From a virus (taxonomy: Duplodnaviria; Caudoviricetes): DNA of 57,518 nucleotides. The stretch lies in the IMG/VR virus record IMGVR_UViG_3300009502_002970, positions 1 to 57,518 of that record. The stretch is one strand, 5' to 3'. Position 1 is the first letter of the stretch; every line of letters starts with the position of its first letter. The notes below the pieces were generated by a model, which saw only the letters and a list, made by a program, of their open reading frames with translations, had not been told where the DNA came from and ran no database searches. Positions 11,866-45,482 of the stretch are shown here, piece after piece. Both the position numbers and the translations under genes were made by a program.

Positions 11866-12924
11866 TTATGCAACAAAAATTGATTTATCACTCGTGTTAA
11901 TGAATTCAGCCCTGGTGACAGCAGTTGCTGGCCCAACGTAGCGGGATGATCCGAAGTATGCAGCATACTTCGTAGCTGAAGCGTTGTTGTCAAGGAACTC
12001 CTGCAGCGCCTTCATATCGGCGTCCCCATCCCTCTGATATGCTGCCTGCATTTCTCCCAGCCGGTTCTGCTGAAGCAGTGTCTTATTCTGAACATTTTTG
12101 AAGGTGTTGTCGGCCAGGTTGAATATCCCCCAGTCAAGCATGTCGATATTGATTTCCACCAGCGCCCTGGCCATGGTCAGATGTACCACGGCCGGCAGGA
12201 TGTAATCCATCAATTCCTTATTCTCATCTGTTAAGGTAGCCGAACTGGCAATTTGCGTATACAGCAGTTCATATAACTCCCTTGATAATGTGGGCATCAG
12301 GTAGCGCTGCTCAATGTTACGCATAAGCGGCATCATGGCCAGGAATACGCGCCTGGAGGCATGGATATCCGCATATACCTGGAATTGCTTTGCGTCTTTG
12401 ACCAGTAATTTTGAATCGTAAAAATCACCAGCCCGTTCATTGAACGTATCGAAGTTATTTTGAATCAATGCCAGGCACAGATCCATCTGCTCATGTGCCC
12501 GGGCAATGTAACGTTCCTTGACATTCATTACCTGGTACTGCGGCGCCGGCCGGTGCGTATCGCTCTGGATCACCGTCACACCCGTTCCTGATAGATTCAC
12601 CGACAATTCATCCACACTCAGGTACAAGGCGTACAATGATTCTGCCTTAATCACCAGGTGAATCAGTTTCCACCAGTTTAGTTCATCTAAAATCTCACGA
12701 GTAACTAGCGGCGTTTCGTCCTTCGATGGGATCTCTTCAGTTAATGTTGGATCGTCGTCCGTATTTAACCTATAAAAAAGGCTATTCATCATTGGTGTCG
12801 GGAACATCGGCATAATAAAGATGTTATGCGCATCGTCCACGAAAGGCTGCAGTAATTCAAACTTGAGCGTGACCGGCACCGGAGCTGCAGTGGCTATATG
12901 GTCAATGGATGTGACTAAGTTCAT
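11866..12924 (-). CDS. DUF6712-like protein (probable head-tail adaptor)
   Basis: Directly after portal; PAPQYQ and DIH.SRRVFL motifs; paralogue 54544-55599. Confidence 0.65.
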   Translation of the reverse strand: MNLVTSIDHIATAAPVPVTLKFELLQPFVDDAHNIFIMPMFPTPMMNSLFYRLNTDDDPTLTEEIPSKDETPLVTREILDELNWWKLIHLVIKAESLYALYLSVDELSVNLSGTGVTVIQSDTHRPAPQYQVMNVKERYIARAHEQMDLCLALIQNNFDTFNERAGDFYDSKLLVKDAKQFQVYADIHASRRVFLAMMPLMRNIEQRYLMPTLSRELYELLYTQIASSATLTDENKELMDYILPAVVHLTMARALVEINIDMLDWGIFNLADNTFKNVQNKTLLQQNRLGEMQAAYQRDGDADMKALQEFLDNNASATKYAAYFGSSRYVGPATAVTRAEFINTSDKSIFVA

Positions 12925-14249
12925 GGCTGTGTTTTATCAACTTTTTGATTGATTTTTGAGGGATGCTGATCCTGTGTCTGCGAGGTATCAACGCAGATAT
13001 AATCAAATTGGATGGTGGGATCCCAGTGATTGAAATCTCGGATGAAATACAGTGGCGAAAGTGATACGGCCCGGTCTGTTCCCATATCCGCGTTAAGCAT
13101 CCAGTATGCCTCACGTTTGTCAGATCCTGACCCGGCTCCCATTTTCCCTCCCGGGAGACCGGCACCTATCAGGCAGGGATCAACACCGATAGCAAACAGG
13201 ATCTCCGAGTTCGCCGCCTGTGAATCGGGAAGGTATGCCGAGTTCTCCAGCTTGTTTTCAATCACATTGATCTTCCACCCTGTTAAATAATCCTGTTTGG
13301 CTTTGCTATAGAACGCGTAAGTGACCAGGGCTTTTCCAGAATTCTCCACGTTAGCCAGGAAGTCATTCATATCCTGCAATACTTCCGCCCGTTTTGCCTC
13401 CCGCTGTTCCTTGGTATAGTCCGCAGGGGGGAAACGGGTGGTAAAATAATCATCCGGGATCTCAATGTGATACTTGATGGTCATCTGGTTCTTCATGATG
13501 GCTTCCTTAAGCATCGGAACCTTATTGGCGATGCTCAGCCACTTGTTCGCACGAACGGAGTGCCACACGGGAAGCGCGTAGTAACTTTTGTTGAAAGAAC
13601 GGTAAGAGAGCTGCATGGCAAACTGTCCATCCGGATACTTCGTGCCATCATACCTGGAGGAATCGAACATCGGCAGGTCCTTCATGTATGTACCATCATC
13701 CTGGGGCATCATTTCCCACCGGGCCGAATAGTACATGAAATCTATCTTGTCATTCTCATCCATCTTAGCCACGCGGCAATAGGCAGGATCCTTAACATAT
13801 ATCCTGTTTACCTGCGTTTTTCCCTTATTTAGGATAAATTCCACCCATCCGTTGGCAAAAATCTCCAGGCCCAGGATCAGATCCGGCCACTGCAGGTTGA
13901 TTTTGTTAACGCGAAAGAACTCCGTAACCACAGGATCAGTTACGATTTCCCTGGTAACCTCGCCTGCGGCGTCCTTTTTTTCACGGTAAGCGACGATTCC
14001 CCGCCCAAAATGAACCCTCTTGCGCTTGTCAAGTGCCCGCATGGCCACCGAATTCGATTCCAAATCAGTCAGCAGATCCTGCGGAAACAAATTGTTTGAT
14101 CCCCAGTTTGACCATAAATTGGGAGAAACATCATACGGCGGGGTGATAATTGGACCTGCATAGTCTGCAGAAGATCCTTTCATCTGCGCGATAGCCTTTG
14201 CCCCGGGCAATATGGCATAATCTCCCTGTACAATTACTCTGTTTTCCAT
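12921..14249 (-). CDS. Portal protein
   Basis: 442 aa; WGSNNLFPQ, YYALP.W, L..VENSGK and GSGSDKREA motifs typical of Bacteroidota phage portals. Confidence 0.8.
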   Translation of the reverse strand: MENRVIVQGDYAILPGAKAIAQMKGSSADYAGPIITPPYDVSPNLWSNWGSNNLFPQDLLTDLESNSVAMRALDKRKRVHFGRGIVAYREKKDAAGEVTREIVTDPVVTEFFRVNKINLQWPDLILGLEIFANGWVEFILNKGKTQVNRIYVKDPAYCRVAKMDENDKIDFMYYSARWEMMPQDDGTYMKDLPMFDSSRYDGTKYPDGQFAMQLSYRSFNKSYYALPVWHSVRANKWLSIANKVPMLKEAIMKNQMTIKYHIEIPDDYFTTRFPPADYTKEQREAKRAEVLQDMNDFLANVENSGKALVTYAFYSKAKQDYLTGWKINVIENKLENSAYLPDSQAANSEILFAIGVDPCLIGAGLPGGKMGAGSGSDKREAYWMLNADMGTDRAVSLSPLYFIRDFNHWDPTIQFDYICVDTSQTQDQHPSKINQKVDKTQP

Positions 14250-14590
14250 CAGAACACGACTTTTTGGTGATTAAATTCAATGATCAGGCGGATATGGATG
14301 GTCCTGATCTGTTTGTTAGGCAACAGGATGTTCCTTGTAGCATTCGCCCAGTGATGAGGATCACGTTTCTCTTTCACGGTCGTTTTCTTTTCCCTGGTAT
14401 CAAACACTACCTCATCATTGCGGGATCCCACGCATTTACGTGCACTGGGCACCTCTATGATTTCACCGCCTGTTTTACGCTGGCGGTCAGCCGTGACGAA
14501 CTTTAACTGAAAACTCATGGGCACGCCATTCTCATCGAGTTCGTCCATCATGTCGAGCGCTGTGCTGAGCTGTATGATCTTTCCTGCCAT
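14249..14590 (-). CDS. Conserved small phage protein upstream of portal
   Basis: DPHHWANATRNI and IRT.HIRLIIEFN conserved in 56930-57274. Confidence 0.7.
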   Translation of the reverse strand: MAGKIIQLSTALDMMDELDENGVPMSFQLKFVTADRQRKTGGEIIEVPSARKCVGSRNDEVVFDTREKKTTVKEKRDPHHWANATRNILLPNKQIRTIHIRLIIEFNHQKVVF

Positions 14591-14630
14591 GGTGCAATTA
14601 TAATCCGGACCATGCTCTTGTTAAAGGACA
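14591..14630 (-). promoter_or_regulatory. Putative late promoter TGTCCTTT-N20-TATAATTG, leaderless
   Basis: Motif starts exactly 40 nt before ATG 14590. Confidence 0.75.
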
Positions 14631-14647
14631 ATTGTAATCTACACCCG

Positions 14648-14731
14648 ATCTTGCCCATCTTGCCCGGGATATTGCCCATCTTGCCCAAAATCTTCCATTT
14701 CTTCCATGAAATCTTCCATTTCTTCCATTTA
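14648..14731. repeat. Four tandem 21-nt units, each two 9-mers plus 3 nt
   Basis: atcttgcccatcttgcccggg / atattgcccatcttgcccaaa / atcttccatttcttccatgaa / atcttccatttcttccattta. Confidence 0.85.
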
Positions 14732-14737
14732 CGACAT

Positions 14738-14768
14738 AAAAAAAAGGTTCGCCCACCAGGGCGAACCT
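14738..14768 (-). terminator. Rho-independent terminator
   Basis: AGGTTCGCCC/GGGCGAACCT stem followed by T8 on - strand, downstream of 14791-15228. Confidence 0.85.
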
Positions 14769-14790
14769 CTAAGGAACGAAGGATCGAAGA

Positions 14791-15228
14791 TCAGAAGTTT
14801 ATTTCATTCTCTACTTCCAGTATGCTGGCGTCGAAGGCGGTCTTGAGGAACTCAATGACTTTCTTCACACCTGCAGTGAAGCTGGTGGTGAAAACATTGC
14901 CATCAGAGTCATTCAGTCGCATGGAACAGTTGAAATCGTTCGATGAAACCCTGAATCGTTCCAGTTCTGACCTGGTTTGTACCAGTTTTGCCCGTTTTTC
15001 GATCAATAATTCAAGATTTTCGATCAGTTCGATCTTTTCCTGCATGGTCATAACTTTCTTTGGAAGTTCGACCGAGGCAGCCTGATCAGCCTCCATCGCT
15101 TCCATCTGCTGGATGAATGAAGTTTCAATTTCAGTGGCCTGGATAATTTCAGCGACTTCAACTGCATGCGAATTTGTGCGTGACTTTGTCATGAGTGTCG
15201 CCCCTGCCCTGGGGACTTTTGTAGGCAT
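14791..15228 (-). CDS. Hypothetical coiled-coil protein
   Basis: 145 aa; C-terminus (RLNDSDGNVFTTSFT) conserved in partial ORF 57390-57518. Confidence 0.75.
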   Translation of the reverse strand: MPTKVPRAGATLMTKSRTNSHAVEVAEIIQATEIETSFIQQMEAMEADQAASVELPKKVMTMQEKIELIENLELLIEKRAKLVQTRSELERFRVSSNDFNCSMRLNDSDGNVFTTSFTAGVKKVIEFLKTAFDASILEVENEINF

Positions 15229-15244
15229 CTGGCACAGCCTGGTT

Positions 15245-15404
15245 AAAATTTATGCCAGAGAAACAATCGGAATGAAAATTCTGGAACAAACGTTCAGGTC
15301 ATGATCATGCAGTGATCTGAATGAACCCGAAGGGCGACGGATCCATCAGGAGGGCGCGTTTAGTGACACGATATTTTCGTGAGATTACCTTTGCATCAAA
15401 TTTT
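15245..15404 (+). promoter_or_regulatory. Long imperfect hairpin 1 (candidate ssDNA promoter / structured element)
   Basis: Arms aaaatttatgc..aatc and gatt..gcatcaaatttt; TACCTTTG at 15386-15393; core GTTCA-GGTC-GATCAT/GTGATC-TGAA-TGAAC-CCgaaGGG. Confidence 0.65.
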
Positions 15405-15559
15405 GAGTAATTGTGCGTTGGCTTTTGCTTGCTTTTCATAAAAGCTGCCCGTAAACCGGTTTTCTTTTTGGATGTCTTTTTCTTTGCCGGATTGGTCCCA
15501 AAGAAAAAGTCCCGACTCCGAACATCCGGAACCGAGACTTAACCTGGAAATAAATTAAG

Positions 15560-16180
15560 CTATAGCTTAATAACCATCCCTGCAGGTGTTAACTGCACTC
15601 TCTTATGCTGAAGAACTATACCGCTTTTCCTTATGTCATTGCCGCCAGAAATAAGATTAACGATCGATATTATTCCAAATAACCCGGCAGCGCCGCCAAC
15701 AGCATAAATTGAATTCCTCTGCGCATCTACATCTTTTATTAACTGTGGGATTAATGCCGTTGAAGTTGTAAGAAGTACTGAAATGCAGCCATAAATACCG
15801 GCATTCCTCAAGTCTTCCCCTCCCATCCTCATTAATTCACCGGATATTTCATCATCAGTCATGCCAGATTTAAATCCTGTTATTATTTTGCCATAATCAT
15901 TTTTATACTGCCACTCTTGATTCTTATTAAGGTTGGTTTTTGGTAAACTTTGGCCATTTGTACCATCACCTCTGCCGGCCATTTTCATAAACTTTATCGA
16001 ATCATTATTTACAGTCCTTATTGTCGAGTCGGGCGGAACGGTATAAATAATATTTATTCTATCCCGATTAATGATATTTACATTCATTATTTTGCCGGAA
16101 TTCATAATAATTGTATCCTGTGACTGTACGGAAACTGTCATTAACAAGATGATTGAGATAAAAAGAAAAGTAGTTTTCAT
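15560..16180 (-). CDS. Secreted/membrane hypothetical protein (moron-like)
   Basis: Signal peptide ..VSVQS-QDTI, two C-terminal TM helices, AT-rich. Confidence 0.7.
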   Translation of the reverse strand: MKTTFLFISIILLMTVSVQSQDTIIMNSGKIMNVNIINRDRINIIYTVPPDSTIRTVNNDSIKFMKMAGRGDGTNGQSLPKTNLNKNQEWQYKNDYGKIITGFKSGMTDDEISGELMRMGGEDLRNAGIYGCISVLLTTSTALIPQLIKDVDAQRNSIYAVGGAAGLFGIISIVNLISGGNDIRKSGIVLQHKRVQLTPAGMVIKL

Positions 16181-16264
16181 GGCTTTATTTTTGTGCAATT
16201 TATAATAATTTTCTCAATTGTGAAAAATAGCGCCCGGATAGTATGCCCCGGGCGCATTAAATGA

Positions 16265-16600
16265 TCACGCCTCAATGGATAACGGCGGATCAGATGGCAA
16301 CTTTACCTCTTCCCTGGATAAAGCGTTTAACAAGCTTTCGTACACCGGTTCCAGGTCTTCAATCAGTTCGCTGATCTCCTTGTACAGGAAACACAGATCA
16401 GCGCGGTATTCGGGTGTCCACTGTTCCGACTCGTCAGAACTCATGGCCACCACAAACAACTGTCGCAGGTACCGGTTAGCAAATTTGGATTTCGTGATTA
16501 AAAAGAAACTGTCCAGGATATCGAGTATCGATTGTTCTACCGGACTGCCACAAAGGGCGCATGTGGTTGCATTCTCGTCATTTGATCTTTGCATAATCAT
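16265..16600 (-). CDS. Hypothetical protein with CxxC; paralogue of 34597-34875
   Basis: RQLFVVAMSSDESEQWTPEYRA vs RQMFVAAISAEESAVWTQEHRA. Confidence 0.65.
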   Translation of the reverse strand: MIMQRSNDENATTCALCGSPVEQSILDILDSFFLITKSKFANRYLRQLFVVAMSSDESEQWTPEYRADLCFLYKEISELIEDLEPVYESLLNALSREEVKLPSDPPLSIEA

Positions 16601-16696
16601 GAATTTAATTGTTAAAAAATCAGGGAAGGTCGCTGCAGACATAACAAACTTTTGGTTAATTGGTACACTCACAGTGAAATTTATTTTTGGTACCTA

Positions 16697-17242
16697 TCAA
16701 ATATTTGCAATTTTCGATAACCTTTCAGCTCTTAAAGTATCCAAAAATACTCGCCATATTTCATCCCAGAACAGCAAAAACAGCGGAGAAATTCCATAAC
16801 AGATAGGGGGATCATAATTAAACGTTTGCATGAGTGCCGGGCAATATCTTTCCAGGTTATTAAAAAAATCATGTTCCTGTATACGGAAAGGATATTCAAG
16901 CTCTGTCCAGATCACCCTGGCTGTATTGACATGAGTGCTTCCTGATCTTACACTGCATACAACTTCACGTTTGATGGTCTGGATCGTGCGTTCCATATCC
17001 AGCGTGTGGGCGCATCCAAATTTTCTGGCAACATAGTGCTTGTCCAATCCTTCAAGAAACTGTTTAAATGGTTCGCCACAGGCTCCCCAGTAGTAGGACC
17101 AGTTGCCATAATCCGAGGCTATTGATAACCTACCACTTTTCCCATGCGTATCCACGTTGATGTCGGCCCATGGAGTTGCAGAAGAATGCCTTATCTTGTA
17201 GCATTCGATATTATTTTTTGTGATAATAAAGTCTTTTTTCAT
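16697..17242 (-). CDS. Hypothetical phage accessory protein
   Basis: 181 aa ORF with I.SDYGNWSYYW motif, A-rich upstream region. Confidence 0.65.
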   Translation of the reverse strand: MKKDFIITKNNIECYKIRHSSATPWADINVDTHGKSGRLSIASDYGNWSYYWGACGEPFKQFLEGLDKHYVARKFGCAHTLDMERTIQTIKREVVCSVRSGSTHVNTARVIWTELEYPFRIQEHDFFNNLERYCPALMQTFNYDPPICYGISPLFLLFWDEIWRVFLDTLRAERLSKIANI

Positions 17243-17262
17243 TGTTGCGTTTTATTAATTTA

Positions 17263-17301
17263 TCTGACCAACCCTCATGCTGAGCCTGAGGGTTGGTCAG
17301 A
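17263..17301. terminator. Perfect inverted repeat (terminator/stability hairpin)
   Basis: tctgaccaaccctca / tgagggttggtcaga 15-bp stem between two co-directional genes. Confidence 0.6.
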
Positions 17302-17310
17302 AATTTCAAA

Positions 17311-17856
17311 TTATCCCCCGAATTCTTCCTGGTTCCTGAACAGATCAAGCTGGTTTCGGTTGTTTTTGCCCCGGCTGTATGCTGCCTGGCGCTCCTCCAG
17401 TTCAAGACGTTCGATTTCGAAGTACCGTTCATCCTTCAGCAGTTCGGCCCTCAGCTCTTCGATACGGTTCTTTCTGGCGGCACTCTGGCGAAGGCTTTCT
17501 TCAGTTTTGCGCAGCCGGCCGAATAACAGATCGTCGATAGTCGAATAAACCCAAAGTTCGAATGCCGGGCTTAACCATGCGGCAAATTTCAGAGCAAGAA
17601 TACGGTGCATCCAGGTGCCGGATTTCTGTGAAGAAATAATTAAATCATCCTCGGATTTTATGTTTAAATAACGCTGATTAGCGTTATTTAAACATTCTGC
17701 GATGAACAATTTCGACTCTTCAATGCGGGTAAAATTTTCCACACGTTTGTCAAAAATCTTCGCCATCTGTGTGGCATTGATCATTAAATTATGATTTCCC
17801 TGTTCAAAATCGACTTCCAATCCGTTGAACTCAAATTTCACGATGTTTTTTTTCAT
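17311..17856 (-). CDS. KilA-N domain DNA-binding protein
   Basis: MINATQMAKIF and GTWMHRILALKFAAWLSPAFELWVY, plus C-terminal coiled coil. Confidence 0.9.
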   Translation of the reverse strand: MKKNIVKFEFNGLEVDFEQGNHNLMINATQMAKIFDKRVENFTRIEESKLFIAECLNNANQRYLNIKSEDDLIISSQKSGTWMHRILALKFAAWLSPAFELWVYSTIDDLLFGRLRKTEESLRQSAARKNRIEELRAELLKDERYFEIERLELEERQAAYSRGKNNRNQLDLFRNQEEFGG

Positions 17857-17947
17857 TGTTTTACTGTTTTTGTGTTGGGTTAGTATAATTGATTGATTAA
17901 AAAAGGTTGAATAAGGGGATATCCCCCTATTCAACCTGACTTCCTTC

Positions 17948-19657
17948 CTATTTCTTCTTGTTTTTCTTCGCATTCAATTCCCCTTCCAGCTCCAGGATAC
18001 GCATCTTGATGGTGTGGTTGCGTTTGGCATAACTGGCATTAATCTTATCGGTAATGGCCGCCATCTCATCCGCGTAAAAAAACGTGATCACGCTAAACAG
18101 AAGCATTACCTTATCCTTGTTGCTATTCGGATCCGTCTCCTGCAGTTTATACCTGAGCCAATACCTGAACTTTACGATATCCTCATCATGGGGAATGATC
18201 ATGGGAGTGGTTGATTTGCACACGCACTGCTTATCCGTGTACGTATGTCTGTGCGAATCATACATCAGGAACATGAAAGCCCTGGTCTCACTATTTGTGA
18301 TCAAACAACCCGACTTATGATAGTTCGACTTGCGAAACATCTCATAAGCCTGGTTATATGTTTTCTCAAATGCCAGTTCTTCATTACGTTTGAGTTTCTC
18401 GCGCAGCTGCTCCAATTCCTTTGCCTTGTCCAAACCTGCCGGTGTCATGTCAGCGGAAATATCCCGTGACCCAGTGGGCATATAGTGTACGATTTCTCCC
18501 CTGTTATGGCCGGCCACCATCAGCACCTTGACAACGTTTCCTGCTGCAATATCAGCGTTGTATGTTTCAAGTTCGGCCTCGTAATCGGCCATTTCCACAT
18601 AATAGTTGTCAATATCATCCGAAAATTCCTCATCATCGTCAACTTCAGTGTAGTCTTCCCTTTCTGGTTTTTCAGGCATCTGCGGCGGATTTATCCTCTT
18701 GAATCCCGTATCGTACGAGAATTCATTGACCAGTATATTATCAGCCTTGATCTTCTTGATGATTTCCTTGTCATTTTCCGGGATATAGGTATCCACGCCG
18801 ATAGCAATTCCCGGTTCATTGTCTGTGATCCTTTTAACTTCCTTCAGCAGGAACGCTTCTTTTTTCTTCTTTAGGCATGACACGTTCATGCAGATCCCTT
18901 CACCTTCCAGGGGAAACAGGCCGTATCCGGAATTAGTGTTGTCCGGGCATGAATTGCATGCCGGTCTTCCCGGGAGCAAGGTGTCATCATACAGCCCGAA
19001 GGATATTTCAGCAAGCTTGGCCGAATACATTCGCTCGATCCAGTTCTTCAGCTGTGATATTGAAGGAGGATCCCAGTGATTTGATTCGTGATTTTTAAAC
19101 GCAAAATCGTACAGTTCTTCCTGTCCTGGTTGTGAAAGCTTTGCAACCTCCAGTATGGTTGTCATGTTGATCCGATCGGATACCCACAACAGTTTGAATG
19201 GTGCGGTAAGATCATTCAGCTTCAACCGCATCCGGATATATCCTTGAGATTTGCCGAACTTGAGCGCCAGGTCAGCGATAGTATGGTGCCCTTCCCGGAT
19301 CAGGTTGATATATGCGTGCGCTTCTTCCAGCGGATGGATGTCTTCCCGCTGCAGGTTCTCGGTGATGGTCAGTTCCATCACCTCATCATCGGATAGATCA
19401 CGGCAGATACATGGCACCTCAGTCATTCCGGCAATGGCAGCTGCTTTCATCCTGCGTTCGCCGCAGACAACCTGGTATTTGAGTTTCTTGTTTGTACCAT
19501 GCACGCGCACGATCAGCGGGGAAAGGATCCCGACTTCTTTAATGGAAGCGGCCAGCTCTTCCAGGTTCTCTTTCACGAAGCTTTGCCTGGGATTTATCCC
19601 ACTGGCTGCAAGATCCTTCAGCGGGATCATGGTAATTGTTGGTGATTCTGTTTTCAT
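17948..19657 (-). CDS. ParB/RepB/Spo0J family protein (long form)
   Basis: NPRQSF..LEELAASI..G..PL.VR, GERR, ENLQREDIHPLEEA, HTH, CxxC cluster, acidic tract. Confidence 0.9.
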   Translation of the reverse strand: MKTESPTITMIPLKDLAASGINPRQSFVKENLEELAASIKEVGILSPLIVRVHGTNKKLKYQVVCGERRMKAAAIAGMTEVPCICRDLSDDEVMELTITENLQREDIHPLEEAHAYINLIREGHHTIADLALKFGKSQGYIRMRLKLNDLTAPFKLLWVSDRINMTTILEVAKLSQPGQEELYDFAFKNHESNHWDPPSISQLKNWIERMYSAKLAEISFGLYDDTLLPGRPACNSCPDNTNSGYGLFPLEGEGICMNVSCLKKKKEAFLLKEVKRITDNEPGIAIGVDTYIPENDKEIIKKIKADNILVNEFSYDTGFKRINPPQMPEKPEREDYTEVDDDEEFSDDIDNYYVEMADYEAELETYNADIAAGNVVKVLMVAGHNRGEIVHYMPTGSRDISADMTPAGLDKAKELEQLREKLKRNEELAFEKTYNQAYEMFRKSNYHKSGCLITNSETRAFMFLMYDSHRHTYTDKQCVCKSTTPMIIPHDEDIVKFRYWLRYKLQETDPNSNKDKVMLLFSVITFFYADEMAAITDKINASYAKRNHTIKMRILELEGELNAKKNKKK

Positions 19658-19751
19658 TTTGTTGGGTTTGGGTTAGTAAAAGTATTTGTTGCAAAAAATA
19701 CAATTCGATACAGCCGCCATATGGCGGCTGTATACTCATTAACAGAAATTA

Positions 19752-19982
19752 TTATTCAAACATTATTTTATCAATGATGTCGGATGTAGTATATCCAAGT
19801 TTGACATTATATTTTGTTTCAATTTTCTTGATCATTTCGCTGCATTTATTCCGTATTTCATCACCAATCTTTTGTTTATCCTTTTCGCTTATATCAGATT
19901 CCTCGAAAGCAAACGAATCAAATTGTTCACCGGATTTTGCAATTAGTGCCGTTGCTATATCTTTTGCCATTTCCTTTGTCAT
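19752..19982 (-). CDS. Small hypothetical protein
   Basis: 76 aa AT-rich ORF flanked by hairpins at 19708-19733 and 20021-20046. Confidence 0.55.
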   Translation of the reverse strand: MTKEMAKDIATALIAKSGEQFDSFAFEESDISEKDKQKIGDEIRNKCSEMIKKIETKYNVKLGYTTSDIIDKIMFE

Positions 19983-20150
19983 AACCCTGATTTTTTAAAA
20001 TTGAACTTCTGTTAATTGCCGCTAACCGCCATACACGGCGGTTAGCCCTGTGCATTAGGGGCAATAGAGGATGATGACTTTCACCATCCTATGCCCCGTA
20101 ATTTTACAACCTTACAAGCCTTGCCTTTAAGCATTCGTTGTAGGTGCCAT

Positions 20151-20501
20151 TTACCCTGCAGATTCGGCATACTCAACTTTTTTAGGATAAATTACTTCGG
20201 CAAACAAATTCTCAACGGTTGCCATCAGTTTCGATGGCAACACGGTCTGTGTATCCAGCGCGATGGTGGTATCAGCAGCCCACAGGGTGATGCACCATCC
20301 GAACCTAAGGAAATGTTTCTTCCTGGTCTCCGAGTAAACGTACATGTAACGAGGCATGATCGACACGTATCTGAACGTGTCAATCGTTTTCATTGCGCCA
20401 AAGGCGGTTGATTTCCCGTCAAACGTCGTCCCACACCTGTGAAATCCCAGGGATTTAAGCAGCGGCCAGCAGGTAGTTTTTGAAATGTCGATTGTTTCCA
20501 T
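20151..20501 (-). CDS. Hypothetical protein
   Basis: 116 aa, closely spaced with upstream ORF. Confidence 0.55.
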   Translation of the reverse strand: METIDISKTTCWPLLKSLGFHRCGTTFDGKSTAFGAMKTIDTFRYVSIMPRYMYVYSETRKKHFLRFGWCITLWAADTTIALDTQTVLPSKLMATVENLFAEVIYPKKVEYAESAG

Positions 20502-20506
20502 TGGGA

Positions 20507-20824
20507 TCAGTGTTTGAGATTCACAAAGTCGGTGTTGATCAGGTGGAACTTTGATCTTTCCACCGCTGGAATATGTTCACAGGTTGTGAATACAAAATTG
20601 ACTTTCGGATTTCTTTCCCTTAATACATCAAGAGAAAGAATATCCTTTAGTGATGTACATTCTTCAATGATCACCAGGTCATAGGAGAAAACTGTATACG
20701 TGTTCTTCTTGATAAATTCCCTGGTCGTTAGAAGGAAGTTTACACCAAACAAATGTGCGATACCAAGACTGATCCACGACTTTCCTGAAGCATGCGGACC
20801 ACTGATTATAATTGCCTTATTCAT
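20507..20824 (-). CDS. Small P-loop NTPase-like protein
   Basis: Walker A GPHASGKS, Walker B-like LVIIEE; only 105 aa. Confidence 0.55.
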   Translation of the reverse strand: MNKAIIISGPHASGKSWISLGIAHLFGVNFLLTTREFIKKNTYTVFSYDLVIIEECTSLKDILSLDVLRERNPKVNFVFTTCEHIPAVERSKFHLINTDFVNLKH

Positions 20825-20974
20825 CTTTTGTTGCCGGTGCCATCCGGTCTTTTTGAGGGTTTCATGGCGTTCCCTGGGTTAGTTGTTTGAATTATTTTAA
20901 AAACATATCGACAACAAAGTAAATACATTTGAATATATAATCCAAATGTATTTACTTTATTATCTAAATTATTT

Positions 20975-21709
20975 TCACATGGCACCATCATCTGCAAAGG
21001 AATAATACTGATCCCCGCCAATGATGATATGATCGAGCACGGCAATGTCAAGCAAAGCGCCGCTGTCGTGTATCTTCTTGGTGATCCGGATATCAGCCTC
21101 ACTGGGCGTTGTAACGCCCGACGGGTGATTATGTCCCAGGATGATCGATGATGCATGATGATCAAGGCATACCTTGAATATCTTCTTTGGATCCACTACA
21201 GTTCCGGATATCCCGCCTTCGGAAATCCGATGCCGGCCGATCACTTTGTTTGCCCGGTTGAGCATCAGGATCCAGAACTCTTCATAAGGCAGATCGCGCA
21301 TCAGGGATGCCAGTATCCTCCTGGCGTCATCACTGCGGGAAATCTTATCCCGGATAACTGCCTCACATGCCTGTTCCCGCCGGCACATGGAGAACATGGC
21401 TGCCAGTCTCACTGCAATTCCCTGGCCAATGCCTGGTACCTGGCACATGTCAGCCACGCTCATCTTCCACAGCTCCTGCAGGTGATTGTTGCATGCAGCC
21501 AGCAGTGTCCTGGAGATGTTCAGTGAAGTATTTCCAGCTATGCCATTGCCAATGATCAGCGAGAGGATCTCGGCATCAGATAGTGCATGGGTCCCCTTGA
21601 GTAACAGTTTGGTTTCAGGGAGATCATCCTCGGCCCAAAGGCGCATGGGGATTTCATTTGCGTAATTGCGACCATCTTCGGCCACCCGGGATACAGTTGA
21701 TTTTTTCAT
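20975..21709 (-). CDS. radC: RadC-family JAB domain protein
   Basis: N-terminal ALSDAEIL and HhH (VPGIGQG), JAB motif HNHPSG...PSEAD, LDHIIIG. Confidence 0.95.
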   Translation of the reverse strand: MKKSTVSRVAEDGRNYANEIPMRLWAEDDLPETKLLLKGTHALSDAEILSLIIGNGIAGNTSLNISRTLLAACNNHLQELWKMSVADMCQVPGIGQGIAVRLAAMFSMCRREQACEAVIRDKISRSDDARRILASLMRDLPYEEFWILMLNRANKVIGRHRISEGGISGTVVDPKKIFKVCLDHHASSIILGHNHPSGVTTPSEADIRITKKIHDSGALLDIAVLDHIIIGGDQYYSFADDGAM

Positions 21710-21731
21710 AGGAGTAAGGGTTAAGGTTAGA

Positions 21732-21876
21732 ATGAAATTTTCTCGCCCTGGCTCTTAAACCGGATTGATCGGATCAGGTCAATAGTGTTGGTCAGATTAC
21801 ACGGTAATCTGAATACACCCAACGGGCACCGCTGTTGAGCGTTCCGATCGATGCAGGTACCTTGGAAAGATTTCAT
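21732..21876 (+). promoter_or_regulatory. Long imperfect hairpin 2 (candidate ssDNA promoter) upstream of radC
   Basis: atgaaattttc/gaaagatttcat and attgatcgga/tccgatcgat stems; TACCTTGG at 21858-21865; same GGTC/TGAA core. Confidence 0.65.
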
Positions 21877-21924
21877 GCGAACCTACCCTCTCCATATCCC
21901 AATCACGTGGCGGTATTGGGGCAT

Positions 21925-21950
21925 AAAAAAAGCCCTGTTGCCAGGGCTTT
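21925..21950 (-). terminator. Rho-independent terminator
   Basis: aaagccctg/cagggcttt stem with T7 on - strand after HTH gene. Confidence 0.8.
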
Positions 21951-21962
21951 ATAATAATCAGG

Positions 21963-22253
21963 TCATCCCTGATCCGCTGGCCGTCGCCATCGGTTCTTCA
22001 TGGTTTCCACCAACTCATCTTCTGCATTCTTGTCAATAATAAACACATAGGTATCAATGACATCACAGAGGGTTATGAGATTATCCAATGTGATGTTGTG
22101 ATTTCCCGACAACATCCTGAATACATTGGGCTGCTCGAACCCTGTTAATTCAGCGATCTTATAGGTTGACAAACCTTTTTCCTTCGCGGTTTCACGCAAA
22201 TATTTGCACAGTAACTTCCTGGCATAAATTATCTTATCATTTTGCATAAACAT
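21963..22253 (-). CDS. XRE/Cro-family HTH regulator
   Basis: GLSTYKIAELTGFEQPNVFRMLSG..NITLDNL. Confidence 0.85.
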   Translation of the reverse strand: MFMQNDKIIYARKLLCKYLRETAKEKGLSTYKIAELTGFEQPNVFRMLSGNHNITLDNLITLCDVIDTYVFIIDKNAEDELVETMKNRWRRPADQG

Positions 22254-22294
22254 AATTTTAAAGGGCCGGTTTCCCGGCCCCGGTGTTTAAATAA

Positions 22295-22561
22295 TTAATC
22301 GGCGTTATTCCAAGCTTTTGCCAACCAAACTTCGGCAGCATGCGCTTCAGCATATATTGCATATTCGCAGTTACCAGACTTTGCCCGTGCATAGGCGAGA
22401 CTTACCTCTTCAGCACATTTTTTTGATAACCAATTTTCATTTTTAGCAAAAATTGAAGCTTCTACTTCGAACTGATCACAGGCGGCAAGATATGCCGCAC
22501 TCTTATTGGTGATGGTTGCATCTGTCCTGATTTTCTCGATGGTGTCAAATTGTGTGTTCAT
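22295..22561 (-). CDS. Hypothetical protein
   Basis: 88 aa from MNTQF, A-rich leader. Confidence 0.6.
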   Translation of the reverse strand: MNTQFDTIEKIRTDATITNKSAAYLAACDQFEVEASIFAKNENWLSKKCAEEVSLAYARAKSGNCEYAIYAEAHAAEVWLAKAWNNAD

Positions 22562-22756
22562 GGCGTTTTTTTTTTGATTGTTTGATGAAACAAAGATAAT
22601 ATCATTTATGATATTACACAAGTATTTAACTGTTATTTTTGAACAGCTGAGTAATTTATTTCTATTCTAAATAACACTGATCAGTGTCCAAACGCGAGTA
22701 CTCGCGTAATGCCGCGCGATTCTGCCGCGCCTTACAGCCATAAGGCATCCGAGCAT

Positions 22757-22786
22757 AAAAAAAGGGTACGGTATTCACCCGTACCC
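22757..22786 (-). terminator. Rho-independent terminator
   Basis: gggtacgg/ccgtaccc stem with T7 on - strand. Confidence 0.8.
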
Positions 22787-22795
22787 GATGTTCAT

Positions 22796-22966
22796 TTATT
22801 TTTTCACTGAGCACTGGCTTTGCAATTCAGCCATTTCCCACATAAGTTTATCCAGGTTTGTTTCTGCAATGTTTTCTACATAGCCGGGGTAATAGATACT
22901 ATCCAAGGTTTCGATGAACATCTGTTCGTAAGACTGATCTAGCGTAGTTTTTTCGAGCGTTGTCAT
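22796..22966 (-). CDS. Small acidic protein (56 aa, not in ORF track)
   Basis: MTTLEKTTLDQSYEQMFIETLDSIYYPGYVENIAETNLDKLMWEMAELQSQCSVKK; lies between hairpin 3 and a terminator. Confidence 0.7.
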   Translation of the reverse strand: MTTLEKTTLDQSYEQMFIETLDSIYYPGYVENIAETNLDKLMWEMAELQSQCSVKK

Positions 22967-22992
22967 GGCTTTAGAGATTAAGGATTAATACT

Positions 22993-23201
22993 GAAAGTTT
23001 CTCTCTAAGCGAAGCTTCACACCGAATCGGTTGAATTATGTCACAGAGTGCAGGTCACGATTCCCACTATCGAATCTGAATGCACCCCAGGGGCACGGCT
23101 CTTGACAGTACGGGTTCTTCAAGGGATACTCTCCCACCCCGGAGAAACCCGTGAAGAACCCGTAGGCAATTCAACCGATATAGGTACCTTGGAAACGTTT
23201 C
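22993..23201 (+). promoter_or_regulatory. Long branched hairpin 3 (candidate ssDNA promoter)
   Basis: atcggttgaatt/aattcaaccgat 12 bp, tacgggttcttca/tgaagaacccgta 13 bp; TACCTTGG at 23185-23192; same core. Confidence 0.7.
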
Positions 23202-23601
23202 GAGGATTAACCATTCCGCCTAACCGGATAGATCGGTGATCTGTGCCGGTGCATCAAAGGGTTTCTTTTTGCCAGCTTTTTCTTTTCCCGTTTTTCAAAA
23301 GAAAAAGCTGCCCGGATTGCATCTCATGCAAATAAAATGGCGTTTGCAGTCAAAAAACAGGCATTTTTCAAGCCTCCAAAATATTAACCGGCGATCATAA
23401 CCAAAATATTGCATTTTGTGTATGATTGTCCCACGCCCCGCCCTGACGCTTTTTTGACAATTTCAAAGGCTCTCCATGCAGGATATATGAAAAGGCTGTT
23501 TAGAATGGTTCTACATGGGTTCACAATGCACACGCGCCCAATACATAAAGAACTGCTCCCCTATGATGCAGACGCACTATGTTGTAAAGTTGTGTGTAGG
23601 A

Positions 23602-25101
23602 CTATCCTATGATGGACATGTCATGTGATGGCTCATGATCACCAACACTTTGAAAGAACATCCAGTAGTAAAGGTTGTCAACTGCATCACTCAGATCAGT
23701 TGCCTTCCACCTTGGTTGCCCTTCCCTGCGCTCTGATGACTTATCCTTCTTGAACTCACTGGGCAGCACAGGCGCACTGTCCATGGACACAAAGGTCTCC
23801 ATTGCATTGTTCATGTTGATCCTGAAGTCAGGCGTGTTGCCACTGTCATTCATGAGGAACTTATGCCAGAAGATGAACTTATCCATGTGAGATATCTCAT
23901 GCAGTTCAGCACACACGTTGACTATCCATCCTGCCTTGGTTAGTTGCATGGTCACATCATCGAAGTACGTCTGCCTTGATGATGCATCATTGCGACGCGT
24001 ACCATCACTGCCACCATAGATGTTGATTGCCTTACGCTGATGATGCTGGTAATACTCGATGAACTTATCTACCAGTACTGCCAGTGTTTCATTCTCCACA
24101 TAGAAGTTCTTGATGATAGGGAACTCATTGCTTACCCTGTGCCATTGACACACGACCATGCAGTTCTGGGTAGATCCGAAGTCGAATGATGCATACAGTT
24201 CAAGGGCACTGATACAGTCAGCATCACCCCTTGAATCCAGGCCGCCATCTTTAAGATCATGACCTATGCCATCATAGAACGCATAGTTGTACGAATCATA
24301 ATAGCAATGCTTTGCAGCGCTCAGCGCTGGATAGAAACCATTGATGTTTGTTTTGCGGCGGATATTCTCGATCTCTATATCATACACCAATGCAGGTAAT
24401 GTTCGTTTGGCATCACGAAAATAGCGCGCTCCCAGGATTCTTTCATTATATCTGGCTGATGCTTCCAGGAACATGAACTCCTTGGGAAATTCAGTCTCCA
24501 TTTTTTCGTATTCAAAAACCCAGTCACCTCCAGGAGTAAGAGGCTGTGATCCCAGGAACAAGGTACCATGATGAAAGCGTATATGCCCGAACTTATCTCC
24601 ATTGCCACGATTCGCAGGCAACACATCAGAATCGATCGCGCTTTTCTTGAGTTTTGTAGCCTCGTCAAAGATCATGTAATCATAGGATCCTGACCTGGCC
24701 ATCTCCGGCCGGTCGAAGGAATTGAACTCAACCACAAACCCGTTATACCAATGAATGCAGTTGGTATAATCCAACGGCGGCTGAAAAGGTTCGGGCCAAC
24801 CCAGTTTTTTCGGCGCCCGGACACCAACAAAGTAATGCAATCCCCGGTATAATCCCCTGCGCTCCAGGTGAGATATGATAGGCGGCATCGATTTGGTTCT
24901 GATATGGAAATAAGTCAGACCGTTAAGAGATATTTTTCCCCTGGGCATGAACATCATGCAATCAAGTATCTGATCAGCGATGATGGTTGTCTTACCTACA
25001 CCCCTGCCTCCGATAAACATCTTGTGAGGCCGGGTGCACAGCTTGATCACACGCTGCGGGTAGTTATAATATGGGGCCGGGACGATCTCTATATCCTGCA
25101 T
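23602..25101 (-). CDS. terL: Terminase large subunit
   Basis: Walker A GGRGVGKT, Walker B MIFDEA, RNase H-like FDFG and DLSDAVD. Confidence 0.9.
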   Translation of the reverse strand: MQDIEIVPAPYYNYPQRVIKLCTRPHKMFIGGRGVGKTTIIADQILDCMMFMPRGKISLNGLTYFHIRTKSMPPIISHLERRGLYRGLHYFVGVRAPKKLGWPEPFQPPLDYTNCIHWYNGFVVEFNSFDRPEMARSGSYDYMIFDEATKLKKSAIDSDVLPANRGNGDKFGHIRFHHGTLFLGSQPLTPGGDWVFEYEKMETEFPKEFMFLEASARYNERILGARYFRDAKRTLPALVYDIEIENIRRKTNINGFYPALSAAKHCYYDSYNYAFYDGIGHDLKDGGLDSRGDADCISALELYASFDFGSTQNCMVVCQWHRVSNEFPIIKNFYVENETLAVLVDKFIEYYQHHQRKAINIYGGSDGTRRNDASSRQTYFDDVTMQLTKAGWIVNVCAELHEISHMDKFIFWHKFLMNDSGNTPDFRINMNNAMETFVSMDSAPVLPSEFKKDKSSERREGQPRWKATDLSDAVDNLYYWMFFQSVGDHEPSHDMSIIG

Positions 25102-25712: not shown

Positions 25713-26002
25713 AAATCATCAAGTTTGGCATTCTCAATCAACTTCAGCGCCGCGGTCTGCGCCGGCGAGCTGCCGGCTTTTGCCAGGTCCAGTACTGCCC
25801 GGCGGATGAGCGCCTCTTCCTTGAGCCGGGACGCCTGAAACGAGCGGTAAACATCACCGCCACGGTTTTCCAGCATGTCCAGAAACTGATCATAGGATAC
25901 ATCGATGATCAGGGCTATCTCGCGCCTGGTGAACATCAGGGCGGCATAGTCCCGGATCTCCTGCATGATCGCTTCAGAAACTTCTGCTGACGAGTTGTTC
26001 AT
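25709..26002 (-). CDS. Small HTH-like packaging-region protein
   Basis: FTRREIALIIDV and AKAGSSPAQ, a pattern resembling TerS-like proteins. Confidence 0.5.
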   Translation of the reverse strand: MNNSSAEVSEAIMQEIRDYAALMFTRREIALIIDVSYDQFLDMLENRGGDVYRSFQASRLKEEALIRRAVLDLAKAGSSPAQTAALKLIENAKLDDL

Positions 26003-26549
26003 GTATCCATTTTTTATGAAACGCGCACGATGTTTTTGAGTTCCGGATGATCCCAATCTCGATGCGGGGATTCCGGGTATAGTTCCCACTGCCGGCAATG
26101 GTGATGCTCCACTGTTCATTCTCAACCACGGTCACTTTTGCATGCACGCGTGAGGGTTTAACATTGGGTGATATCCTCTTGAGAAAATGAAACTCTGCTG
26201 ACTTTACCGTAACGTTGCGGTAATCGAATATCCCGGTCAGGTCGGTGATCAGGCCTGATGTTACATAGTTGTACAGTTGCCGGATAGCATACTCGGATAT
26301 TGCCCAGGTAGTAAAATGAACGGCGGCCGGTCCCGTTTTCTCAAGCACGTAGAAGAGCAGGTCATGTACAGACCAGTCACCGGTTGACACGAACTCGATC
26401 GCCTCTTCCACCTGGGGAAGATCCTGGATAACCTCGGTAAGGGTTTGTTGTGAGTTCCCCACCACGAACCTGGTAGGTCCCTTATGCCTGATGGCCGCGG
26501 AACCGCTCTTTCTTGGTTGGTTGATATCGTCAATGGAAAACAGGCTCAT
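25974..26549 (-). CDS. Phospholipase D-like (HxK) nuclease domain protein
   Basis: HAKVTVVE...GSGNYTRNPRIE single HKD-type motif. Confidence 0.75.
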   Translation of the reverse strand: MSLFSIDDINQPRKSGSAAIRHKGPTRFVVGNSQQTLTEVIQDLPQVEEAIEFVSTGDWSVHDLLFYVLEKTGPAAVHFTTWAISEYAIRQLYNYVTSGLITDLTGIFDYRNVTVKSAEFHFLKRISPNVKPSRVHAKVTVVENEQWSITIAGSGNYTRNPRIEIGIIRNSKTSCAFHKKWIHEQLVSRSF

Positions 26550-27232
26550 TTTGCCAGCAGCTTATCAACCTCGAACAGCTGCTCTTCGTATGCTGCCAAT
26601 GACAGCCGGTAATGATCTTGTTTCGCTTCTTTGCCCGGGTTCTTCAGATACCCTTTGATCCGGGAGATGTGTGAACGGATATTCGTTCGGGCCTTGATCA
26701 GTTCAACCGGGTCCAGGGTAGACACTGAAGGTTTCTCTTTCTTACCTGATTTCCCGGCCACCGGTGGCAACACCCCATACTTTTCAAAATGGTTTTTCCT
26801 CTGGTACATGGCATCAAGTTCATCAGCTACATCCAGGATCATCAGTGCATCATGCCTGCGCTGATCATCACCTACCAGCTCGAGGGTTGCATGAAGTGTG
26901 TCCAGGGCTTTCCAGTGCATCTTGATATCCTTGAGCAGCGCGGCAATATCACCCTTGTCATCATTGGAGATGCCTACCCTGGTGATCACTACGGGCGCCG
27001 CCGGCGCATTGACCTGAACCGGTGCAACCCTTTTGGGTGGCACTGTGAACGGTTGCACTGATCCCAGCAGCTGTGTCAGTTCATGCACCAATGTTTCATG
27101 CATGGCCGGCGAAGGATCCTGCCGGGTTAGCAACCGCTTGAGGTTACCGCTGCTTCCATACAGTTCATAGAGTTCTACTCCCCGGGCAAAGTCACGTGAC
27201 GATGCCAGCCAGGCTTTTATTGCTTCATTCAT
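26546..27232 (-). CDS. Hypothetical phage protein
   Basis: 228 aa from MNEAIKAWL; coupled to neighbours. Confidence 0.65.
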   Translation of the reverse strand: MNEAIKAWLASSRDFARGVELYELYGSSGNLKRLLTRQDPSPAMHETLVHELTQLLGSVQPFTVPPKRVAPVQVNAPAAPVVITRVGISNDDKGDIAALLKDIKMHWKALDTLHATLELVGDDQRRHDALMILDVADELDAMYQRKNHFEKYGVLPPVAGKSGKKEKPSVSTLDPVELIKARTNIRSHISRIKGYLKNPGKEAKQDHYRLSLAAYEEQLFEVDKLLAK

Positions 27233-27932
27233 CGAGCAAAGATTTTTGTTCTGCCAAAAATTGGTGCCACTCAGGCGACTTCCGGTCCGGGGCAAAGGAG
27301 AATGACTTAGGATGCACCCGGTAGTCCATCAGTACTGCCTCCATATTATATAAGGTATGACCGTTCAACAGGTACTTAATCCAGAGGGAATAATCTTCGG
27401 CCAGATGTGATGGTGTGGGGTTATACCCACCGAGCTTCAGCAGGGTATCGCGCTGAAAACACACACCCGGGTGATTAATGAACCAGTGACCGGGCATACC
27501 TGCAGCCACCTTCCTGGTTACTTCTGCAGGATGATGCGAATACCATTCCCGTTCATTGTTAAAAAGGCGTATCTGGATCCCACATACCTGCCGGTAGGGA
27601 TACAGTTTGAAGAACCAGTTATGATACATCAGCAGATCCGTATGCGCGATGTCATCTGCATCCATGCGCACAACCAGGTCACCACTGCAGAACTTCAGGC
27701 CGAAGTTCAGTGCTGCAGCAATCCCTTCATTTTTAAACTTACGGACTAAGGTTACCCGCAGGAATGCCACGTCAAGCCACTGCAGGTAATTATACAATGG
27801 TCCTGCAGGATTATTATCATCTACAATAACCAGTTGAAAATCCTGGAAACTTTGTGCCAGGATCGAGTCCACGGCCTCCTGTACCCATTCAACAGGTGTG
27901 GCATAAATCGGCATTAGTACACTAATTCGCAT
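27225..27932 (-). CDS. Glycosyltransferase family 2
   Basis: ISVLMPIY, VIVDD, RMDADD, HP, EDY.LW motifs. Confidence 0.92.
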   Translation of the reverse strand: MRISVLMPIYATPVEWVQEAVDSILAQSFQDFQLVIVDDNNPAGPLYNYLQWLDVAFLRVTLVRKFKNEGIAAALNFGLKFCSGDLVVRMDADDIAHTDLLMYHNWFFKLYPYRQVCGIQIRLFNNEREWYSHHPAEVTRKVAAGMPGHWFINHPGVCFQRDTLLKLGGYNPTPSHLAEDYSLWIKYLLNGHTLYNMEAVLMDYRVHPKSFSFAPDRKSPEWHQFLAEQKSLLDE

Positions 27933-43115: not shown

Positions 43116-43385
43116 TTATTCGAGTGTCGATTCTTTTTGTTCTGCTATTTTTAAAGGTGTCGATCTATAAATCATTTCATTTTTGGCTGCAGTTTCTTTA
43201 TTCCCATCATAAAAAAACTTGGTAACCAGGACAACAATAACGGTCATGGTGTCAAACAAACTTCTGGCTAAATCTTTATTTTCTGCCGGAACTACCTTAA
43301 ACAGAATACAACCGATCAGGGTGAAATATCCCAGATAGATCACCACTGCTAGGCAATACCCGAATATCTCTCTTGCCTGTTTCAT
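43116..43385 (-). CDS. Holin-like two-TM protein
   Basis: 89 aa, two TM helices, charged C-terminal tail, last gene of late operon. Confidence 0.55.
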   Translation of the reverse strand: MKQAREIFGYCLAVVIYLGYFTLIGCILFKVVPAENKDLARSLFDTMTVIVVLVTKFFYDGNKETAAKNEMIYRSTPLKIAEQKESTLE

Positions 43386-43801: not shown

Positions 43802-43810
43802 AAATTGGAT

Positions 43811-44416: not shown

Positions 44417-44417
44417 A

Positions 44418-45473: not shown

Positions 45474-45482
45474 AGGTTGGAA

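Follow-up and report, generated by a model that had tools for sequence, protein, structure and literature searches.

The window analysed here is a 57,518-nt stretch of viral DNA (IMG/VR record IMGVR_UViG_3300009502_002970) that holds tailed-phage genes, with about 9 kb of non-structural genes lying between terL, the gene of the terminase large subunit, and the portal gene. Comparison of this interval with its relatives suggests, with fairly good confidence, that it is a recurrent accessory island of the phage located beside the probable cohesive-end site (cos). The genes of its conserved frame, namely g56, a gene for a RadC-like JAB protein, g145 and, in most relatives, a gene for an ArdC-like protein, are likely of a counter-defence or establishment type, and the freely exchanged cargo in the middle probably serves the lysogen. 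The phage itself is most plausibly a temperate cos-type siphophage with 3' cohesive ends, related to Helgolandviridae and integrated in a freshwater Bacteroidota genome. Copies of a repeated element, named module M, stand before genes of the frame, and by comparison of these copies module M is a newly described, covariation-supported structured nucleic-acid motif.

The island between terL and the portal gene

All genes of the element are located on the minus strand. In the first of two phage units in the window, 9.0 kb of non-structural genes part terL from the g113/portal pair (Table 1). The only cultured relative found was the Polaribacter phage Leef_1 of the Helgolandviridae (NC_062750; Bartlau et al., PMC8776804). 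In tblastn comparisons, terL shares 28-31% identity over 94% of its length with gp48 of Leef_1 and with an annotated Microcystis phage terL; the PHROG match of the portal gene is weak (1.2e-4).

An earlier description made from the sequence alone (the sequence-only reading) had seen in this interval about 9 kb of radC/JAB, ParB, KilA-N, XRE helix-turn-helix (HTH) and small acidic open reading frames (ORFs) with their own terminators, and had argued from the second unit that the interval is not a one-off insertion. All of these points were borne out. At the Pfam gathering cut-off, the RadC, ParB_N, KilA-N and Cro/C1 HTH assignments all pass, and no Pfam family was found above the cut-off in 11 other ORFs tested from the interval. 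Apart from g56 and g145, the acidic ORFs include proteins of 135 aa (isoelectric point, pI, 4.35) and 76 aa (pI 5.0). Terminator-like sites number 21, compared with 8.7 +/- 3.8 in shuffled sequences, and strong coding-strand terminators directly follow six ORFs (17904-17937, 16230-16255, 15507-15540 and the three sites given in Table 1). A homologue of g145 is retained just upstream of the g113/portal genes of unit 2, and the same layout is found in a third copy on contig C56 of the same genome, where terL and portal are about 9.3 kb apart with RadC included, and in metagenomic relatives. Six copies of g145 exist in the genome; searches of Pfam, PHROG and a protein atlas returned hypothetical proteins only and no family. 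Comparison of leaders indicates that the true start of g145 is probably near 15192.

The window corresponds to G000:C136:77212-134729, part of a 99%-complete genome of 5.16 Mb in 140 contigs with 48% G+C. The host phylum is judged to be Bacteroidota from type-IX-secretion sorting domains, the hosts of related phages and the TAnnTTTG promoter box. The two related phage units are arranged in tandem on the minus strand, and unit 2 is cut by the contig end. They occupy positions 1-39700 and 43385-57518, head to tail, with 45-71% protein identity, and are separated by a spacer of low G+C (28-37%) at about 39.7-43.4 kb. Contig C56 represents the third unit, and C47 probably carries the upstream half that matches unit 2.

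With terL as query, 17 viral and 80 metagenomic loci were retrieved. Comparison of the interval across relatives, a check that the sequence-only reading had itself proposed, revealed a conserved frame, a hypervariable middle and a distance from terL to g113 that ranges from 325 nt to 9.4 kb. The shortest distances are 325 nt (L013), about 360 nt (L014 and L015) and 880 nt (L010); L007 and L164 have about 3 kb, and 6.2-9.4 kb was measured in L117, L119, L120/L122, L153, L161, L190, C56 and the window. According to ORF clustering over nine complete cassettes, the frame consists of g56 (9/9) and RadC (9/9) on the cos side, clusters c3, c4 and c6 in 6-7 of the nine, and g145 (9/9) on the portal side. 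Homologues of g56 are located directly after cos in relatives and satellites. Cluster c3, present in 7/9 cassettes, is the ArdC-like protein, composed of an ArdcN and a zincin-like MPTase-PolyVal domain. The middles of the nine cassettes are each unique, with the exception of one content common to C56 and L161, a Schlafen/AlbA_2 protein. Much of the variable cargo of relatives is defence rather than anti-defence, belonging to restriction-modification (R-M) and toxin-antitoxin (TA) systems. An Eco57I-type methylase with a BsuBI/PstI endonuclease was found in L117 and C129, a PLD-type endonuclease with an M.Eco57I-type methylase in L120, Vsr with a C5 methylase and EcoRII in L190, and HigB/HigA in L153.

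The same genome also contains elements with an integrase, an HTH protein and a DnaG-type primase, in which no structural genes were seen. In their satellite-like order, module M and g56 follow the cos blocks and are themselves followed by cargo, which is a nucleotidyltransferase/HEPN-like pair, RadC, or an R-M system with the ArdC-like gene and g145. Two P4-like satellite candidates are listed in Table 1; a tyrosine integrase, an HTH_17 protein and a DnaG-type primase of 1059 aa were observed in these candidates, and no capsid or tail genes were seen. Two tandem cos modules are located on C140, at 21044 and 21513. On C129 (1652-7505, locus L315), the Eco57I-type methylase and BsuBI/PstI endonuclease are joined by the ArdC-like gene, c4, c6 and g145, and then by host-like genes with no portal; this cassette probably forms the end of the island in a satellite or in another unit.

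The candidate cos site and the proposed order of entry

The candidate cohesive-end site lies about 160 nt after terL. Conservation is low over most of the roughly 600-nt spacer behind terL; the invariant blocks in it are ATAGGGGAGCA, TTTCATATATCC, a CAATTG palindrome (AATTG element) and the 13-mer AGGGCGGGGCGTG. The 13-mer occurs once in the window. Among the 80 metagenome loci it follows terL exactly in 60 and with 1-2 mismatches in 10, giving 70/80 in total; of the other 10, 8 stop short of the site and 2 are without the 13-mer. The blocks and the 13-mer were also found in the integrase-primase elements, which have no terL. Since the blocks precede the 13-mer even there, they are to be regarded as cis signals and not as trailers of terL.

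Several contig ends fall in this spacer. The last base of contig L126 immediately precedes the 13-mer, and contig L114, from a different data set, stops 2 nt into it; two further contigs stop elsewhere in the spacer, at +23 and +84. Library preparation strips 3' overhangs, and contigs that end without the 13-mer can be explained in this way. The ends of L011 and L017 were also considered as DNA ends; both stop exactly at the terL stop codon, which was put down to gene-boundary trimming. For Leef_1, the excerpted text of its description gives 'Cos 3'' ends predicted by PhageTerm (PMC8776804), and its record terminates right after a homologous TTTTCATAT..GTTTCGT AGGCCACGGCGTTGT series (...TTTTCATATTATC...GTTTCGTAGGCCACGGCGTTGT), the evident counterpart of the conserved blocks. 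The proposal that the 13-mer is the 3' cohesive end fits the invariant blocks, the contig ends and the Leef_1 record. The packaged-DNA end near 23440 that the sequence-only reading had suggested thus receives comparative support.

Additional scans of viral contigs were carried out. The scan for TAGGGCGGGGCGTG gave 94 stretches, 7 of them with cos context, among which L034 and L081 were newly found. The scan for CTGTCAAGGGCGAC gave chance matches only, and among the matches listed no contig starts at the cos site. One metagenome contig of 8547 nt spans 15272-23818, and contig breaks fall at k-mers common to paralogous elements.

The conserved packaging-signal blocks would lie on the terminase side of the cut, the side that in lambda is presumably packaged first. 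By this position of the blocks, the island end would probably be packaged last and be the first into the cell. In the virion, the island would form the first 9 kb or so at one chromosome end, and its frame genes would act as an immediate-entry module, like T7 gene 0.3 or a plasmid leading region.

Several observations weigh against this interpretation. The end of L126 prompted the hypothesis, leaving L114 as the independent case, for which coincidence is estimated at roughly 1 in 8. The ends of Leef_1 are a software prediction, described as experimentally unverified by its authors in the excerpted text (PMC8776804). Assembled metagenome contigs run across the site, as a prophage would give. 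The whole cos module of the relative L010 is located 6.6 kb upstream of terL. The cassette of the window carries no recognised defence or anti-defence protein, as PADLOC gave nothing significant on its proteins and sub-threshold-looking matches only, and the ArdC-like gene is absent from it. Finally, the packaging direction and the first-entering end are inferred only, by analogy to lambda.

The arrangement in L010 is as follows. Its cos module, with GGGGAGCA twice, TTTCATATATCC, CAATTG and the 13-mer, stands before glycosyltransferase genes (L010:380-560 and L010:8640-9540), and terL is followed by one extra ORF and then by g113/portal. It can be seen that the cos module has moved within the family and that accessory genes follow it again.

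Module M and its possible control of the frame genes

The regions upstream of g56 and g145 are homologous over about 300 nt, and this homologous element is module M. When the 57.5-kb window is searched with a profile of 51 copies, the module is detected three times, ahead of g56, RadC and g145, and at no other place. Across the 80 metagenome loci, 143 of 143 matches are inside the terL-portal interval, with 0 in 480 kb upstream and 0 in 18 kb downstream, and the gene strand carries 161/161 matches in relatives. Among 117 matches that reach the 3' end of the module, the following gene is g56 in 47, RadC in 29, the ArdC-like gene in 16, and g145 in 7 plus 4 frame variants; the remainder precede spurious or other ORFs (8) or none (6), and restriction, methylase or toxin genes follow in 0.

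The core of the module, domain D, is about 95 nt long and was aligned across 98 distinct copies. In its curated structure of helices P1-P5, pairing is preserved in 92.3% of cells compared to 78.2% in shuffles, and slid controls reach at most 47%. Compensatory changes were observed in 23/29 pairs, and 0/500 shuffles equal the observed values. P2, P4 and P5 are independently recovered by RNAalifold. A long imperfect hairpin that RNAalifold suggested for the g145-type module was unsupported by single-sequence DNA folds or the partner-swap test. No family of Rfam 15, including the radC and STAXI motifs, was matched at the gathering score, at E<=1 on 9.2 kb or at E<=10 on two module stretches. The covariance model R1 detects the core in 3/151 genomes of the host's order, the own genome included; it gives no match in cassette-less relatives or in Leef_1.

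The position of the host promoter box gives the module an odd geometry. TAnnTTTG is the -7 box of this host: upstream of 1599 long ORFs it peaks between -40 and -21, and does so solely on the sense strand. Of 105 distinct copies of the module, 1 has this box on the sense strand and about 90 have it on the template strand, at a fixed position. Also, a conserved (T/G)AAATTT(C/T) element stands 20-70 nt before start codons, with a second copy upstream of the fold. Control at the level of duplex DNA, by a non-consensus promoter and a transcribed structured leader, has about an even chance. The form in which module M is an ordinary duplex promoter of a special class can be put just short of even: (T/G)AAATTT(C/T) would be the promoter signal, the structured 5' leader a cis-regulatory RNA and Bacteroidota counterpart of the radC and STAXI motifs, and the template-strand box a divergent or antisense promoter or a coincidence. 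A compact fold of several helices, strongly backed by covariation, is what structured RNAs typically show, a further conserved leader follows (T/G)AAATTT(C/T) at the g145 and ArdC-like genes, and other structured motifs have been described ahead of radC, antirestriction, ssb and integrase genes, according to the excerpted text of Weinberg et al. 2010 (PMC2864571). It has to be set against this that 104/105 copies have no sense-oriented consensus host promoter, that terminators lie just upstream of the modules, that G.U pairs are nearly absent and that Rfam gives no match, even at E = 10 on short stretches. The alternative of a single-strand DNA promoter or priming signal, with module M as a Bacteroidota-type analogue of Frpo/ssi in a tailed phage and its satellites, is possible but rather doubtful. 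In that case the template strand, the + strand of the window, would be freed by 5'-to-3' resection or displacement from the cos end, or in replication; the folded template would present its own TAnnTTTG box to the region immediately preceding the gene, and the counter-defence gene would then be read by the RNA polymerase of the host. The strand bias of the box argues for this. Moreover, the terminator of the preceding gene stands ahead of each module, and therefore the folded core lies between a divergent box and a gene without an evident source of sense transcription. The core helices contain 1798 Watson-Crick pairs, with G.T pairs numbering 15 on the sense and 30 on the antisense strand, which is unusual for RNA, and in 70/76 copies the more stable fold is that of the template strand, not of the sense strand. 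A short helix, GAAATTT/AAATTTC or AAAATTTGATGC/GCATAAATTTT, would bring the box to a point some 32-40 nt upstream of the start codon, the spacing seen in host genes. ArdC-like and RadC genes belong to the families carried by DNA that arrives in cells as a single strand. All modules have one orientation relative to the cos end, where the template strand has its 3' end, and therefore 5'-to-3' resection would expose the template strand.

Tailed phages, however, inject duplex DNA, and other observations also argue against a single-strand signal. Folded as DNA, 15236-15425 scores z = -0.25 (+ strand) and -0.61 (- strand), a stability that does not exceed that of shuffles, and the minimum-energy fold lacks the closing helix; over 24 copies the mean z is only about -1.9 to -2.2, with both strands alike. 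Closing-helix energies are -9.27 kcal/mol with cognate and -8.31 with non-cognate partners, the cognate partner being better in 49/84, and the palindromic AAATTT core pairs by default. The short helices of 3-9 bp around junctions are more RNA-like and unlike the long Frpo hairpin, and copy 3 is 8 kb from the end. No match to the module was found by blastn in plasmid and phage collections, R1 matches gave no link to conjugative elements, and no conjugation genes were found in the context of stray copies on C68, C27, C50 and C107. Since (T/G)AAATTT(C/T) is at the position of a duplex promoter, a non-consensus promoter, with or without a transcribed leader, is at least as likely as a single-strand promoter. 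The remaining probability belongs to other mechanisms. From the hairpin promoters on the + strand that had been proposed in the sequence-only reading, the conserved fold and the -7 box on the template strand stand, together with the strand logic, the 3' end at the cassette-side terminus being that of the template strand; shuffles are matched but not surpassed in stability by the window copy, the partner comparison lends the closing helix little, and a long hairpin was not found. The same reading had likened the cassette to a leading region. This agrees with the presence, on one strand, of ArdC-like genes in 7/9 and RadC in 9/9 relatives' cassettes; RadC has 0 mentions in the main text of Samuel et al. 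2024 (PMC11541004), the source of the Frpo concept and strand rule as excerpted here. Its further suggestion was conjugative mobilisation of the element in trans. This alternative, in which the element or the cassette alone is transferred and an oriT adjoins a genuine leading region, is very improbable. The ArdC-like, RadC-like and ParB-like genes and their uniform orientation would suit it. No relaxase of family PF03432, the family covered by the search, was detected in the genome, with Bacteroides thetaiotaomicron as a positive control, and the three ArdcN genes of the genome are all inside these cassettes. The element carries terminase, portal, capsid and tail genes, the flanks of the island are always terL/cos and portal or satellite primase/cos, and the conserved site is already accounted for by cos.

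If the single-strand signal were real, the first-entering cos end would be resected or unwound by host nucleases, the template would fold and show its -7 box, and the ArdC-like, RadC-like and small acidic genes would be switched on. A virus with duplex DNA would then possess a 'leading region' in the style of conjugation, and with it an alarm triggered by damage. The odd promoter geometry makes it testable whether single-strand promoters, as in conjugative plasmids, exist in duplex-DNA phages.

Comparison with known systems and further features

The closest parallel in position is the hotspot of P2 and P4, which adjoins their shared cos site (Rousset et al. 2022, PMC9122126, in excerpt). There as here, a hypervariable island is located beside cos and next to the portal gene, with R-M and TA defence cargo (here in relatives), and the position is common to helper-type phages and integrase-primase satellites with the same cos signal, known here from sequence. 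The present system differs in its Bacteroidota host, its unrelated phage lineage and the location of the island between terL and portal. The conserved frame (g56, RadC, ArdC-like, g145) and the repeated module M are further differences, neither being mentioned for P2/P4 in the excerpted text (PMC9122126). These results would extend the rule of a cos-side defence hotspot in helper phage and satellite from enterobacterial P2/P4 to an unrelated Bacteroidota phage-satellite system, in which the island pairs exchangeable defence cargo with a fixed frame of counter-defence type.

Apart from P2/P4, the island can be compared with the Frpo anti-defence islands, as far as these are described in the excerpted text (PMC11541004). 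In both, counter-defence genes (putative ones in the phage) are clustered on one strand at the presumed first-entering end, and individual genes are headed by a repeated, orientation-locked structured element, a likeness of descriptions. In contrast, the present case concerns a tailed phage with duplex DNA packaged from cos, short helices and Bacteroidota-type promoter boxes. The radC motif (RF01754) and STAXI (RF01728) are likewise folded motifs by radC, antirestriction, ssb and integrase genes of mobile DNA, and a role of single-stranded DNA was also raised by the authors of STAXI (Weinberg et al. 2010, PMC2864571). These motifs are listed, in the excerpted text, for Proteobacteria or Enterobacteriales and have another architecture, and no Rfam model matches module M. 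Module M has 98 distinct copies with strong covariation and is tied to ArdC-like and RadC-like proteins and to two acidic proteins without known family. The latter two, g56 and g145, are promising candidates for anti-restriction or anti-defence proteins not described before.

Leef_1 has the same unusual order of protease/capsid, terL, interval, g113-like gene and portal, 31-34% identity in terL, portal and protease, and the homologous motif at its predicted Cos 3' ends. Its interval is different, being 2.6 kb with five small ORFs and having no RadC, no homologue of g56 or g145 (tblastn) and no module M. In T7 (gene 0.3/Ocr) and in the first-step transfer of T5, the first-entering end holds small acidic or anti-restriction genes; there, the entry order and expression have been demonstrated and ordinary duplex promoters are used. 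In the present phage, by contrast, entry order and expression are inferred.

Table 1. Positions of the features discussed (window coordinates unless a contig is named)
Feature	Position	Strand	Basis or remark
Unit 2 g145 homologue	57390-57518	-	blastp 78% identity over 90 aa; reaches window/contig end
terS-like gene, 202 aa	25104-25712		upstream of terL
terL (terminase large subunit)	23602-25101	-	phrog_2 at 2.6e-11
Candidate cos region	23432-23564	-	conserved blocks in intergenic alignment
cos block ATAGGGGAGCA	23554-23564		
cos block TTTTCATATATCC	23481-23493		
Invariant 13-mer AGGGCGGGGCGTG	23432-23444		proposed 3' cohesive end
Module M copy 1, before g56	22974-23318	-	nhmmer 1.2e-31; R1 6.7e-9; inverted repeat I7
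Copy 1, upstream hairpin	23273-23310		
Copy 1, domain D	23031-23123		
g56, conserved acidic protein, 56 aa, pI 4.2	22796-22966	-	first gene inside cos; terminator 22764-22786
108-aa ORF, variable cargo	22295-22621	-	consensus -7 box 22591-22598 (TANNTTTG scan)
XRE/Cro/C1-type HTH protein, variable cargo	21963-22253	-	Pfam HTH_26 (PF13443), 27.6 bits; terminator 21929-21950
Module M copy 2, 3' part only, directly before RadC	21712-21846	-	nhmmer 1e-17; R1 7.7e-7
Copy 2, domain D	21769-21846		
RadC-like JAB protein	20975-21709	-	UPF0758_N + RadC (PF04002), 5.1e-43, 146.3 bits
Variable cargo of window copy	15560-20980	-	Pfam, PHROG, inverted repeats, -7 boxes
ParB-like protein, 569 aa	17948-19657	-	ParB_N (PF02195) + HTH_ParB, 3.6e-25, 88.3 bits
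KilA-N protein	17311-17973	-	PF04383, 3e-17, 62.8 bits
Further cargo	within 15560-20980		105-aa protein with P-loop-like motif; 116-aa and 76-aa ORFs
Further cargo	within 15560-20980		181-aa protein (phrog_13202); 135-aa acidic protein; 212-aa protein with signal-peptide-like N-terminus
Module M copy 3, before g145	15223-15528	-	nhmmer 1.3e-56; R1 5.7e-13
Copy 3, hairpin	15476-15509		
Copy 3, template-strand TACCTTTG box	15386-15393	+	
Copy 3, domain D	15276-15371		
g145, conserved acidic last island gene, 145 aa, pI 4.9	14791-15228	-	terminator 14743-14770
g113	14249-14590	-	homologous to Leef_1 gp05; with portal opens structural operon (12921-14590)
Portal gene	12921-14249	-	32% identity over 439 aa to Leef_1 gp06 'portal protein'
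P4-like satellite candidate (L314, continuing into L308)	C140:14876-23036, then C107:1-1443		
P4-like satellite candidate (L318)	C136:1-6494		

Several minor features were observed in and around the island. Two genes upstream of the terS-like gene is an endonuclease-like gene (25974-26549, minus strand; phrog_16945 at 2.4e-18, no Pfam match), recalling the HNH proteins that aid cos cleavage in other cos phages. A second variable region, with glycosyltransferase/GtrB-like genes of the PHROG 'moron' categories, occupies 27225-30110 on the minus strand, between the capsid genes and the HNH-like/terS-like genes; it is missing from most other relatives and was found in L010, L012, L013 and C47. Just downstream of RadC, an AT-rich inverted repeat (20894-20980) has 41-nt arms that are 78% complementary and consensus -7 boxes on both strands, at 20924-20931 (+) and 20943-20950 (-). 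Between the g145 terminator and g113, at 14600-14735 on the minus strand, there are two sets of short direct repeats, of the AATGGAAGA and GGGCAAGAT types, and by their position upstream of the portal operon these may be late-gene activator sites.

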